This document shows, one piece after another, positions 5,332-8,733 of a stretch of DNA of 30,280 nucleotides. The position numbers and the translations under genes are program-made. The notes beneath the pieces were generated by a model that was not told the DNA's origin, did no database searches, and was given only the letters and a program-made list of their open reading frames with translations. Position 1 is the first letter of the stretch. Every line of letters starts with the position of its first letter. The DNA is from a virus: UHGV virus genome UHGV-0139558. One strand, 5' to 3'.

Positions 5332-5766
5332 ATGTCCGGTAATATCTACACGTTGTACAAATCCCACTGTGAAAATGTTGGAAAGTATCGGGGCATTGAA
5401 ATCAGTGGGATAGTGTCATCAGTCGAAATAAGCAAAGTGGAATCAAGGGCAACATTACTTACTCTTCTGGATCTTGTCTTACATGAGCACCGGAAGAAAT
5501 TCGGCACTCCCTATAATCAGTTGAATGGGAAAAAGGCTCTGGTTCACCTTATTCTGATGAAGCATCACTGGATGCCAAAACAGATTAATGAGATGAAATT
5601 TGATGAACTTCTTCTTTCAATTCAGGATGAACTCACACTTGATAAAATAAGCGTAACCGCCCAGAAATTTTTAGATTATCGAGACTGGAGATCACAAATT
5701 CATCACTTTGATGATTTTGACGAAAATGAATGGGATCCTAATTTGTCTGCACAATATCTAAAGTAA
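5332..5766 (+). CDS. Hypothetical 144-aa protein, orphan gene oriented against the leftward early operon
   Basis: AGGA RBS 6 nt upstream of ATG; preceded by about 280 bp of noncoding DNA with direct repeats; 3' end overlaps the convergent 5738..5944 gene. Confidence 0.45.
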   Translation: MSGNIYTLYKSHCENVGKYRGIEISGIVSSVEISKVESRATLLTLLDLVLHEHRKKFGTPYNQLNGKKALVHLILMKHHWMPKQINEMKFDELLLSIQDELTLDKISVTAQKFLDYRDWRSQIHHFDDFDENEWDPNLSAQYLK

Positions 5767-5944
5767 CATCCTGTGATAAAACCGTGATTTCCTGATCCAG
5801 TTTTTTTAAGGAGTCTATTGTTTCCTGTCGATAAGACAGCACTTCACGAAGCTGGTTTATAGCTGCCAGCTTCTTTGTCATCCACTCATAAATTTCCTCA
5901 TCTGTGTAGCCAGGCGCGACGATTTTGGGTTCTGTTTTGTGCAT
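5738..5944 (-). CDS. Small hypothetical early protein (about 68 aa), first gene of leftward operon
   Basis: Start at 5944 preceded by GAGGAGGTG RBS; coiled-coil-like translation. Confidence 0.45.
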   Translation of the reverse strand: MHKTEPKIVAPGYTDEEIYEWMTKKLAAINQLREVLSYRQETIDSLKKLDQEITVLSQDVTLDIVQTN

Positions 5945-5992
5945 TTCACACCTCCTCAAGTTATCAGTTACTTGTTGATGGGGACCAGATTG

Positions 5993-6016
5993 TTAAAGAG
6001 CTAAGCGTCCTGTAGG
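5993..6016 (+). terminator. Candidate rho-independent terminator (plus strand)
   Basis: Stem AGCGTCC / GGGCGCT (one G-U wobble) followed by TTTTTTGTTG. Confidence 0.4.
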
Positions 6017-6099
6017 GCGCTTTTTTGTTGCTAACGAATCATCCTGGACTTCATATGCCCCAGGCGGCTACTTCGTGGGTGTCCTGCCTGTTCGTTGTC

Positions 6100-6160
6100 T
6101 TAACACCTTTAAGTTGTAATTTAGTTGTGGTTTTGAATGTTGTCAACAACTTTATGTGGT
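6100..6160. promoter_or_regulatory. Left operator region (OL-like) with repressor half-site repeats
   Basis: Motifs AACACCTTTAAGTTGT and CAACAACTTTATGTGG share the half-site ACAACTT/AAGTTGT with the cI-cro intergenic region. Confidence 0.5.
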
Positions 6161-6209
6161 TTGAACGAGTAGCCAAGGAGTGCAAGGATTATCAAAAAAA
6201 GGAGGTTGT

Positions 6210-6593
6210 ATGGAAGACGCGCTTTACGCTTTTAATTACACACAGAACCGGGACAAGTTATTTGCTAACTTGATTAGCATCATTGATGGAATCATTGCAG
6301 ATGGAGTTGTCCGTGAAGAGGAGGTTCTTTACTTAGATACATGGTTACTTGAAGCAAAGCAGATTATCAATAATGGAGTTATAAAAAGTCTATCTGCTCG
6401 GGTGTCGGATATTCTTGCGGATGGAATAATCACATCAGAAGAACGTGATGACCTTAAAAATAGCCTTCTCCAAATACAGAGGGAAATTCTTGATATCCCT
6501 GAAATTGATTTTTACTCCAAGGATGTAGATGTCCATTTACTTAATGGACTATGTAAAGGATTAATTGCTGATCGGAACTTAACTCAAGAATAA
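6210..6593 (+). CDS. TerB-like domain protein (about 127 aa)
   Basis: AAGGAGG RBS 6 nt before ATG at 6210. Two 'ADG-h-h-x-EE' motifs ('IADGVVREEEV', 'LADGIITSEER') as in TerB-family helical domains. AT-rich. Confidence 0.5.
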   Translation: MEDALYAFNYTQNRDKLFANLISIIDGIIADGVVREEEVLYLDTWLLEAKQIINNGVIKSLSARVSDILADGIITSEERDDLKNSLLQIQREILDIPEIDFYSKDVDVHLLNGLCKGLIADRNLTQE

Positions 6594-6632
6594 ATAAGAT
6601 ATCTTAATTGGTGGCTTGAGCAAAATGGAGCT

Positions 6633-7100
6633 TTGAAGAACAACTACCCAGGAAAAAAACTTTATGCACTTGTAAAGGAAATTCTTAAAGATGGTGTTAT
6701 TACTGAAGATGAGAGTTTAACTCTACATAAGGCATTAGTAGACTTCACAGGATGTGACTTGGAAAGTGGGGTGGTGGATGGTTTGGCGACCAGGCTGCCT
6801 ATTGATGTAGGGGCTTCGATAGAGTTAGAGGGTAAAACCTATTGTCTTACAGGCACTTTTGTTGCAGGAAAGAGAGCCGTAGTTGAAAATTTGATTAAAA
6901 ATGCTGGTGGGAACATCAGTAGTGGAATTACTCAAAAGTTGGATTTTTTAGTAATTGGGACGCTTTCCTCCCGTGATTGGAAATTCTCTAGTCACGGAAG
7001 GAAGATCGAAAAGGCTATATCTTATAGGGATGATAATGGTGCAAAACTTAAAATTATTTCTGAAGAAATGCTTTTCGATGCATTACCAAGTTCGCGATGA
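6633..7100 (+). CDS. BRCT-domain protein with N-terminal TerB-like half-motif; same frame as upstream ORF, separated by one TAA
   Basis: C-terminal 'GKTYCLTGTF...GKRAVVENLIKNAGGNISSGITQKLDFLVIG...ISEEMLF' matches the BRCT pattern of LigA C-termini. Listed ORF starts at TTG; frame is open back to the TAA at 6591. Confidence 0.5.
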   Translation: MKNNYPGKKLYALVKEILKDGVITEDESLTLHKALVDFTGCDLESGVVDGLATRLPIDVGASIELEGKTYCLTGTFVAGKRAVVENLIKNAGGNISSGITQKLDFLVIGTLSSRDWKFSSHGRKIEKAISYRDDNGAKLKIISEEMLFDALPSSR

Positions 7101-7769
7101 CCAGAATACCCTACCTATAACATGAATTCTGGCTCGTCTATCTTCAAAGGTGAGTATTTCATCTGGGTACTCATCTTTGTTGAAGCTTCTAAGAATCAAG
7201 CCACCGTCAGGTAAGTTGATAAGTATTTTAACCCTTAGCAATACACCATCTCGTACGGCATAAAGATCGCCATCACGAATAGGAACGGTTTGAGAAATAT
7301 CAACGGCAACAAGATCTCCATTATTGAGAACCGGTAATAAACTGTTCCCCCATATTTGTACGATCTTGGCATTAGATGCACATACGCCAGATTTTCTCAA
7401 ATCTGCTCTTCTTAACGGAAACCAGTCAATAGCTGATTCAACTATTTCAGCCAGACATCCGTTACCTGCCGATAACTCGACATCTAAAACAGGAATGTTT
7501 ACGAAAATATCGGGGTCTAATGCGGTGCTTTCTGCTTCTTTTACAACAAGATCAGGTATGGATGCGTTGTCTTCAATACCAAGTTGTAACCACTTTTGTG
7601 ATACACCTAAAACTTTTGCAATTTCTTTAATTTTGCGCGGTTGTAGAGTTTCGCCATTCTCTATTTTGGCTACAGATTGTTGTGAAAGTCCAATTTTTTC
7701 AGCTAGTTGAGCTTGGCTCATGCCAGCTTTCTCTCTACCTATCTTTAATCGTTCTGCCAGTGTTTTCAC
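7083..7769 (-). CDS. cI: CI-like prophage repressor (HTH_XRE + S24 LexA-like peptidase domain)
   Basis: N-terminal HTH 'MSQAQLAEKIGLSQQSVAKIENGE'; C-terminal S24-like fold; GTG start with AGAGGG RBS; divergent from Cro-like gene across operator repeats. Confidence 0.85.
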   Translation of the reverse strand: MKTLAERLKIGREKAGMSQAQLAEKIGLSQQSVAKIENGETLQPRKIKEIAKVLGVSQKWLQLGIEDNASIPDLVVKEAESTALDPDIFVNIPVLDVELSAGNGCLAEIVESAIDWFPLRRADLRKSGVCASNAKIVQIWGNSLLPVLNNGDLVAVDISQTVPIRDGDLYAVRDGVLLRVKILINLPDGGLILRSFNKDEYPDEILTFEDRRARIHVIGRVFWSSRTW

Positions 7770-7796: not shown

Positions 7797-7885
7797 TTAC
7801 AACTTTATGTTTTAGCTTTCCAACACCTAAAAGTTGTGGTAAAAGTTGTTAATGTTGTATTCTTGCAGCTCGTAACAACTTAACT
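7797..7885. promoter_or_regulatory. Right operator/promoter region (OR-like; pRM/pR expected here)
   Basis: Repeated half-sites ACAACTTTATGT, AACACCTAAAAGTTGT, AAAAGTTGTTAATGTTGT, GTAACAACTT between divergent cI and cro. Confidence 0.55.
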
Positions 7886-7904: not shown

Positions 7905-8153
7905 ATGACACCTGAGCAATTAGCCTTATCGGAGGCAATCGCTCTGGCTGGTGGTCAATCAGAATTGGCTCGGAAGCTCACAGCCAGCAGCGGTCATTTA
8001 GTAAAGCAACAACATGTCTGGAACTGGTTGAACAGAGAAAAGCGTCCCCCTGCAAAGCTCTCGATATTCATTGAAAAGACCACTGGCATATCAAAAGAAA
8101 AATTACGTCCAGATATTTTTCAAAAGATTAAAGATTCATCAGATGAAAAGTAA
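7905..8153 (+). CDS. cro: Cro-like / YdaS-family HTH regulator
   Basis: 82 aa, GGAG RBS; 'AGGQSELARKL...' HTH; position immediately right of OR, divergent from cI. Confidence 0.7.
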   Translation: MTPEQLALSEAIALAGGQSELARKLTASSGHLVKQQHVWNWLNREKRPPAKLSIFIEKTTGISKEKLRPDIFQKIKDSSDEK

Positions 8154-8175: not shown

Positions 8176-8733
8176 GTGGGTAAGCATCACTGGAAAATAG
8201 AAAAACAGCCTGAGTGGTACGTGAAAGCTGTCAGAAAAACTATCGCGGCGTTGCCGGGGGGTTACGCTGAAGCCGCTGACTGGCTGGATGTAACAGAGAA
8301 CGCTTTATTCAACCGCCTTCGTGCAGATGGCGATCAGATTTTCCCGCTGGGATGGGCAATGGTTTTACAGCGTGCTGGTGGCACTCACTTCATTGCTGAT
8401 GCTGTGGCGCAGTCTGCAAATGGCGTCTTTGTGTCTCTTCCTGACGTCGAGGATGTGGACAACGCCGATATTAACCAGCGTCTGCTGGAAGTCATTGAAC
8501 AGATCGGCAGTTATTCAAAACAGATTCGTTCAGCAATCGAAGACGGCGTAGTGGAACCGCATGAGAAGACAGCAATTAACGACGAGCTGTATCTCTCAAT
8601 TTCGAAGCTGCAGGAGCATGCAGCACTTGTCTACAAAATTTTTTGCATTTCAGAAAGTAATGACGCCCGCGAGTGTGCAGCTCCGGGCGTCGTGGCGTCG
8701 ATTGCTTCTGGTTGTGGAGAAACTAACGCATGA
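8176..8733 (+). CDS. CII-like / YdaT-like regulatory protein (putative)
   Basis: GTG start with AAGGAG RBS at 6-nt spacing; follows cro as in Rac-type immunity regions. Family call from position and recollection. Confidence 0.45.

Follow-up and report, generated by a model that had tools for sequence, protein, structure and literature searches.

Lambda rexAB, sieB of P22 and lambda, and bstA of Salmonella BTP1 are lysogen-expressed exclusion or abortive-infection genes that lie beside the phage repressor. The stretch analysed here, the 30,280-nucleotide (nt) virus genome UHGV-0139558 (hereafter the window), carries at positions 6210-7100 a gene in the same niche, beside cI and bracketed by operators. 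The gene specifies a protein with a helical N-terminal region and a C-terminal BRCT domain, and is referred to below as the BRCT gene. Like rexAB, sieB and bstA, it is AT-rich, accessory and losable. Unlike them, it is unrelated in sequence, lacks a membrane or effector domain and is, in the window, a pseudogene. It also differs from rexAB in that the lambdoid BRCT gene is transcribed convergently to cI and not with it, whereas in its distant relatives the gene is part of the repressor operon, like rexAB. A previous reading made from the letters of the DNA alone (the sequence-only reading) had compared its position with that of rexAB, and the analogy is strengthened by these relatives inside the repressor operons of other phages. 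Taking all the evidence as a whole, we consider it highly probable that the locus is an E128* pseudogene of a repressor-linked gene whose intact protein, we infer, is made in lysogens and senses DNA ends or nicks, most likely for defence.

Read in one frame, 6210-7100 comprises 296 codons and is interrupted once, by the TAA at 6591-6593 (codon 128), just as the sequence-only reading had described two open reading frames (ORFs) in the same frame with one stop between them. The first ORF (6210-6593, + strand) encodes a truncated product of 127 amino acids (aa) (P0271) that comprises helical domain A and the first helix of helical domain B; this exact protein is present in public assemblies. It is preceded by a Shine-Dalgarno sequence, AGGAGG, at 6200-6205 (+ strand), 4 nt before the ATG at 6210. 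The second ORF (6633-7100, + strand) is a 3' remnant of 155 codons counted from a TTG (P0285) and contains helical unit 4 and the BRCT domain. The gap between the two ORFs is 39 nt. The G+C content of the gene is 37.9%, compared with 49.2% for the window, and its 3' end overlaps that of cI by 18 nt, in agreement with the earlier description of the locus as AT-rich, rightward and convergent with cI.

The locus was detected by megablast in 47 of 5,426 complete E. coli genomes. In those genomes RefSeq annotates a single 891-nt coding sequence (CDS), WP_000389078.1, as a 'BRCT domain-containing protein'. The window differs from the intact CDS of strain 2018-166 (L001) at one base, a T for G at 6591 on the + strand, which turns GAA (Glu128) into the TAA at 6591-6593. 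Not one of the 47 locus-bearing E. coli genomes has the 71-mer that surrounds the stop in the window, and the codon-128 stop is absent from the 80 viral contigs compared. When 91 loci were compared (three E. coli genome regions, eight loci from other genome assemblies and the 80 viral contigs), 88 had one uninterrupted ORF of 292-297 codons. The 120 listed homologues, from Escherichia, Salmonella, Citrobacter, Klebsiella, Serratia, Enterobacter, Cronobacter and Plesiomonas and 68-100% identical, are all 279-304 aa long except for one 245-aa partial sequence. Glu128 is invariant both in an alignment of 23 sequences and in an alignment of 75 (A2) that contains relatives at 25-45% identity. The stop falls in the third copy of an internal repeat (ADRNLTQE-E128*), in the first loop of the second domain copy. 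The comparison of orthologues proposed in the sequence-only reading thus finds one fused ORF of 292-297 aa and a TAA that is not conserved, and of the possibilities raised there it is the single gene broken by a nonsense mutation that holds.

Judged from this comparison, 6210-7100 (+ strand) is a single gene for a 296-aa protein (WP_000389078.1, PHROG 3989), turned into an ordinary pseudogene by a G-to-T transversion at an invariant glutamate, one base away from the intact CDS. The pseudogene is recent and carries no second mutation. The E128* allele yields at most a 127-aa N-terminal fragment efficiently, the BRCT half being left without a proper start signal, and the function of the gene has presumably been lost in the window. 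The split itself is ordinary, and the family is catalogued and uncharacterised. For the window, the result is mainly one of clean-up: what looked like a gene pair is one dead gene, with no recoding. Another allele of the gene is flagged 'internal stop' by RefSeq. A megablast of 6000-7150 against phage GenBank records matched the first ~100 nt alone, ending at ~6099 upstream of the gene, and therefore no deposited phage carries the gene at the megablast level.

Other lineages have lost the gene by other routes. Nonsense alleles include G117* (GGA to TGA) in L002 and L094, W135* (TGG to TAG) in GCA_022180125.1 and others, and Q242* (CAA to TAA) in L039 and L040, and the 5' part of the gene has been replaced in L096 and L097. 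In 24 E. coli genomes that encode a variant of the same cI at 83% identity, the annotation shows no adjacent BRCT gene. In L104 (NZ_AP042519.1), the one genome inspected of the 24, a remnant of ~150 nt survives at L104 2842-2990; an internal deletion of ~730 bp has joined the gene's first ~25 nt to its last ~130 nt. The nonsense alleles, 5' replacements and deletion remnant show that the prophage persists without the BRCT gene. Where the gene is intact, orthologues have a nonsynonymous divergence (dN) of 0.14-0.25 with saturated synonymous sites; as a result of this saturation, most pairs are not computable for dN/dS (omega) by NG86, and the one computable pair has an omega of 0.08. On these sequence comparisons the intact gene is under purifying selection and is constrained where it is kept.

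Several alternatives to a plain pseudogene can be weighed against these data. The single-base difference from the common allele could suggest a sequencing or assembly error, which is hardly credible: the exact 127-aa and 155-aa products of the E128* allele are found on at least 10 contigs from at least 5 independent runs or metagenomes, with the same neighbours, and because of this recurrence the stop is a genuine allele. The persistence of the allele in several samples, the shared frame, the 39-nt gap and the intact flanks would also fit a functional split, either by programmed read-through or re-initiation or as a coupled pair of TerB-like and BRCT genes, read-through and a coupled pair being alternatives that the sequence-only reading had left standing. 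We regard such a split as very improbable. The stop is present in no orthologue examined, other lineages stop at codons 117, 135 and 242, and the TAA cuts through a helix-loop-helix unit of a domain. UAA followed by A, the context found here, is an efficient terminator in E. coli. The next canonical start after the stop is the TTG at 6633, whose GGAG lies merely 2 nt upstream, a spacing that is not usable for a Shine-Dalgarno sequence, and there is no in-frame ATG in the 6210-7100 frame between the stop and codon 287. Since the TAA is private to this allele, the orthologues are single ORFs and other stops lie elsewhere, neither read-through nor a coupled pair is supported.

It is likewise improbable, if less so, that the 127-aa N-terminal fragment keeps a partial or dominant-negative activity and represents a neofunctionalised truncation. 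The first ORF does have the native promoter, the Shine-Dalgarno sequence and a complete domain A, and three independent stops (codons 117, 128 and 135) lie within 19 codons, just after domain A. We have set this clustering aside, because it is mostly a matter of ascertainment: the called second ORF (P0285) arises equally from the G117* and W135* alleles and solely from stops in that stretch, and two of the three stops were found through a look-up of that same ORF. Losses elsewhere in the gene (Q242*, the 5' replacements and the ~730-bp deletion) speak against a retained N-terminal product. So does the composition of the wider family, in a scan of which no natural member consists of domain A alone, while the natural short forms keep domain B and the BRCT domain. 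The simple loss of a once intact gene thus accounts best for the window locus.

The BRCT domain of the intact protein (aa 206-290; 6825-7079, + strand) is of the RFC1/LigA type. It scores 29 bits against Pfam PF00533, above the gathering cut-off of 21.3, over aa 206-290, and the second ORF alone scores 26.4 bits; the BRCT-like domain recognised by eye in the sequence is therefore a firm assignment. PF00533 is matched by 66 of the 75 distant relatives, and the domain has the alpha/beta fold expected of a BRCT domain. Its best matches in both sequence and fold are the BRCT domains of RFC1 (p140) and LigA, with E-values in profile searches of PDB sequences of 2.7e-8 and 5e-7, respectively. In a hidden Markov model alignment to 2ebu/2k6g, the motifs CLTG, GKR and TQKL stand opposite ITG, IER and SKK. 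T214-G215, R222 and K242/243 are thereby aligned with the T-G, R and K-K positions that form the pocket for the 5'-phosphate of DNA in the RFC1 BRCT domain. In alignment A2, conservation of T214, G215 and R222 is 90% or higher. By this alignment the RFC1-type phosphate-pocket residues are retained, and phosphate binding is predicted.

In contrast to RFC1 and LigA, the window protein has no clamp-loader or ligase catalytic domains, and it has a conserved insertion, SSRDWKFSSHGRKIEKA. The name 'NAD-dependent DNA ligase' given in some sources is for this reason a mis-annotation, and we reject it: the adenylation, OB, zinc-finger and HhH domains are not found, and LigA models match aa ~175-255 only, at 20-28 bits against cut-offs of 369-1051. 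The BRCT tail of the DEDDh exonuclease-BRCT proteins (NCBIfam PRK06195, 'DNA polymerase III subunit epsilon') also matches the window protein. The window gene differs from these in having no exonuclease domain, although some of its relatives are fused or adjacent to an RNase_T exonuclease.

The N-terminal part of the protein is built from repeated helical units. An AlphaFold2 (AF2) model, with a mean pLDDT of 71.6, has nine helices over aa 4-180, and four helix-loop-helix units with the loop [A/K]-D-[G/R]-h-h-x-x-x-E are found at aa 17-48, 57-93, 108-139 and 150-180. The repeat motif reported in the sequence-only reading is thus real, with four copies instead of the three then counted. Helical domain A (aa ~14-93; 6249-6488, + strand) includes the loops ADGVVREEE and ADGIITSEE and the model helices 4-29, 36-52, 56-69 and 76-93. 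Helical domain B (aa ~104-183; 6519-6758, + strand) duplicates domain A; its loops are ADRNLTQEE, inside which the stop lies, and KDGVITEDE. Alignment of aa 10-97 with aa 100-185 by hhalign gives a probability of 99.7% and an E-value of 8e-27, and the helical region is therefore a tandem duplication of a four-helix domain of ~80 aa.

The loops resemble those of the metal-binding domains TerB (PF05099) and DUF533, which have the same type of helix-loop-helix with an acidic loop, 'aDG....E'. In the window family, by comparison, the unit forms a duplicated ~80-aa domain, and the window protein has no match to these Pfam models. TerB matches neither the window protein nor either of the two ORFs at E <= 1, and the match of the family consensus, which spans 24 residues in unit 4, stops at 17.7 bits where the cut-off is 24.4. 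Among the distant relatives, TerB is matched by 12 of 75 (best 9.5e-5) and DUF533 by 2 of 75, at a whole-protein E <= 0.05. The TerB assignment proposed for the gene pair is not sustained by these searches, and because the scores are below threshold the loops are called TerB-like in motif only. One copy of the same helix-loop-helix motif is also seen in YmfL, a cII-like protein (Phage_CP76) encoded at ~8180-8733 in the same cassette, and the NCBIfam YmfL model matches aa 58-92 of the BRCT protein at 1.6e-4.

The protein belongs to a large family. It is matched over its full length by phrog_3989, which has no assigned function, at 1.5e-128. A full scan of 1.84 billion representative proteins, counted as 50%-identity clusters, recovered 2,854 clusters at E <= 1e-3 and 1,590 at E <= 1e-10. 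Many members are short forms of ~210 aa with one helical domain (domain B) and the BRCT domain. Others are fusions, with a DEDDh exonuclease, with a LigA-like HhH2-BRCT tail, or in a 2,042-aa protein with an AAA_11/AAA_12 helicase, an MTES_1575 nuclease and DUF3320. The C-terminal module (helical domain B and the first half of the BRCT domain) is common to all members tested and to the PADLOC candidate PDC-S48. The match is partial and weak, covering profile positions ~200-405 of 411 at 21-58 bits and leaving the N-terminal ~200 positions unmatched; PDC-S48 is itself a candidate, and no paper on it was found in the literature searched. Beyond this partial match, the PADLOC scan revealed no homology to a known exclusion or defence protein. 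A search for loci starting from the proteins P0121 and P0125 returned no related loci.

Short forms in L100, L102 and L103 are preceded by a conserved small gene of 132-168 aa (L100 3472-3978, L102 2450-2848 and L103 3579-3977) whose stop overlaps their start. The small gene has no Pfam hit and contains the motifs ...NPEL..(K/R)AL.GEL......GG... and LRG(E/D)DL.I(D/E). It may be an obligate partner of the short forms.

The locus in the window is part of a lambdoid immunity cassette, with OL operators, the BRCT gene reading right, cI reading left, OR operators and cro. The repressor, of cI type with HTH_3 and Peptidase_S24 domains by Pfam, is encoded at 7083-7769 on the - strand and converges on the BRCT gene, the 3' ends overlapping by the 18 nt given above. 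With at most two mismatches allowed, a 15-bp palindrome, ACAACTTnAAGTTGT, occurs just four times in the 30-kb window; OL and OR contain two of these sites each. Operator O-a (ACACCTTTAAGTTGT, 6103-6117) lies over the start of a leftward PL-like promoter and is invariant in the alignment. Operator O-b (ACAACTTTATGTGGT, 6146-6160) lies between the -35 element of PL and the putative -35 element of the BRCT gene, and the two OR operators, O-c and O-d, are at 7799-7813 and 7823-7837. The OL and OR sites bracket the pair formed by the BRCT gene and cI, so the position between OL and cI read earlier from the sequence was correct. The operator blocks are invariant across loci, although cI is just 57-100% identical to the cI of the window.

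The PL-like promoter was found by a promoter scan at 6118-6146 on the - strand. It is of the sigma-70 type, with TTGACA, a 17-nt spacer and TAAATT (10 of 12 matches), in a block that is invariant across loci. The putative promoter of the BRCT gene (6161-6189, + strand) is recognised from conservation and not from the consensus scan. It has a -35 element, TTGAAC, at 6161-6166, a variable 17-nt spacer and an extended -10 element, TGc followed by AAGGAT, at 6181-6189. In 97 loci, representing 28 distinct sequences, TG[CT]AA[AG]GAT keeps a constant distance from the preceding operator block ...GGTTTGA, whereas the intervening 13-14 nt vary freely; the putative -35 element reads TTGA(A/T)(C/T) across loci. 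In L104, the one genome inspected from the deletion lineage, the extended -10 motif is mutated to GGGCAAGGGT. The predicted transcription start at ~6196 would place O-b with its centre near -43. Lambda OR2 is centred near -43 relative to PRM, and by this shared geometry cI probably permits or activates transcription of the BRCT gene. Given this geometry and the placement of relatives in repressor operons, we infer that, while cI is bound in a lysogen, a weak extended -10 promoter belonging to the BRCT gene itself would drive its expression.

The linkage to repressors extends well beyond the window. In ~80 enterobacterial loci the BRCT gene and a cI of the same family face each other and overlap at their ends, and across these loci the identity of the BRCT protein to the query (69-100%) tracks that of cI (57-100%). 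Elsewhere the arrangement is co-directional: a 186-type CI, the BRCT gene and an integrase in a Pantoea element; an S24 cI, the BRCT gene and an integrase, then an AlwI endonuclease, in a Seminibacterium element; an HTH protein, a 207-aa protein, the BRCT gene and an integrase in a Kosakonia element; and an S24 protein, the BRCT gene, GmrSD, HEPN, a methyltransferase and an integrase in a P2-like element of Oceanimonas. In unrelated viral contigs, one of high and the others of low G+C content, a single small gene separates the short form from an S24 repressor upstream of it. Temperate phages of several unrelated architectures thus carry the BRCT gene next to or within the repressor operon.

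Some family members have neighbours of other kinds. AbiE adjoins a BRCT-family gene in Shewanella. An operon in L110 (1-5588) consists of a DUF4011/AAA_11/AAA_12/MTES_1575/DUF3320 helicase-nuclease, an SMC-like ATPase, an RNase_T exonuclease, a BRCT-family protein and an ion channel; partners in this operon also exist as fusions (P0233, P0190 and P0216), and the operon looks like an undescribed multi-gene defence-like system. It adjoins a gene with HTH and Peptidase_M78 domains (ImmA/IrrE-type) and an integrase. In L113 (486-5357), a family member is located between a JetC-like SMC ATPase (AAA_23, AAA_29, SbcC_Walker_B) and a 79-aa DUF3375 (JetA-like) fragment, an arrangement that may be a decayed or interrupted Wadjet-type locus.

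How might the intact protein act? In a lysogen, transcription would start from the extended -10 promoter that abuts the cI operator. The BRCT domain would bind 5'-phosphorylated DNA ends or nicks, or a phospho-ligand, and metal or partner binding would fall to the acidic helical loops. The protein would then sense or block incoming foreign DNA, alone or via a host partner, and so would serve defence or the exclusion of superinfecting phages. The superinfection-exclusion or host-repair-targeting role suggested in the sequence-only reading is weakly supported, and in the window the gene is dead whatever its role. Exonuclease, helicase-nuclease or channel effectors are attached to this module in other genomes. 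The presence of GmrSD, HEPN, AlwI and AbiE among the neighbours, the L110 operon with partners that also exist as fusions, and a C-terminal module in common with PDC-S48, lean towards defence. As to function, we tentatively favour, with confidence that stops short of a firm preference, a lysogen-made protein that recognises 5'-phosphorylated ends or nicks or a phospho-ligand and interferes with foreign DNA. A broader proposal is possible and rather more doubtful: that repressor-linked proteins with duplicated helical domains and an RFC1-type BRCT domain are a widespread class of lysogen-expressed sensors of DNA ends or nicks that protect against phage DNA, by themselves or, in other genomes, with exonuclease, helicase-nuclease or ion-channel effectors, expression in the lambdoid members being wired to cI by the PRM-like geometry at OL.

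A number of observations weigh against a role in exclusion. The intact protein has no recognisable effector domain, and its function is deduced by comparison. Ahead of the BRCT gene the consensus scan detected no promoter on the + strand, and the putative -10 hexamer agrees with the consensus at 3 of 6 positions; lysogenic expression of the lambdoid version is argued by analogy, from the promoter geometry and the relatives. Distant members in L111, L112 and L114 occur in housekeeping-like chromosomal contexts, and the superfamily is therefore broader than phages or defence. The literature search found no study that characterises the family and no experiment on phage exclusion by it, its sole relevant item being a passing remark in PMC13345283. 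Finally, stable co-inheritance with one cI family could equally mean that the protein is a regulatory partner of the repressor.

This last point leads to the idea that the intact protein is a regulator of lysis and lysogeny, in which the BRCT domain senses DNA damage and modulates repressor stability or prophage induction, so that loss of the gene alters induction. The tight co-inheritance with one cI family, the overlapping convergent 3' ends, the tracking identities and the position inside repressor operons in distant phages all suit such a role, as does the helix-loop-helix motif shared with the cII-like YmfL of the same cassette. Against it stands the association of the BRCT gene with a 186-type CI too, a repressor that is not known to be cleaved by RecA. 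The module is moreover maintained without the gene, in the 24 genomes with the deletion-type locus and in several nonsense alleles, and defence genes are frequent neighbours. PMC13345283, a 2026 preprint, remarks briefly on the cI and BRCT-domain genes in regulatory modules of Roseobacter prophages and interprets them as sensing DNA damage; the remark favours a regulator, and no experiment is given with it. On balance we think a regulatory role, although the main rival, unlikely, and keep a DNA-end sensor acting on foreign DNA as the working explanation.

Modest novelty lies in the linkage to repressors, the geometry of operator and promoter and the duplicated domain. A lead also emerges, namely a large family under purifying selection that is repressor-adjacent in very different temperate phages and has modules and neighbours in common with nucleases and defence genes. 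If it were true that the intact protein is a cI-controlled DNA-end sensor that excludes other phages, this would be a new kind of immunity-region defence and would show DNA sensing by a BRCT domain in bacteria. For such work nature already supplies the controls, in the form of the null alleles E128*, W135*, G117* and Q242* and the deletion.

Two further features of the cassette deserve mention. The slot to the left of OL (5332-6022) is variable. In the window it contains an ECs1072-family gene at 5332-5766 (+ strand), a 68-aa gene on the other strand at 5741-5944 and a strong + strand terminator at 6003-6022, and in the same cassette of L003, L092 and L104 it is occupied by a ClpX-type zinc-finger gene. 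The gene in the cro position (7905-8153) is named 'YdaS family helix-turn-helix protein' (Pfam YdaS_toxin) in public records, YdaS being a cro/antitoxin-like family of cryptic prophages.

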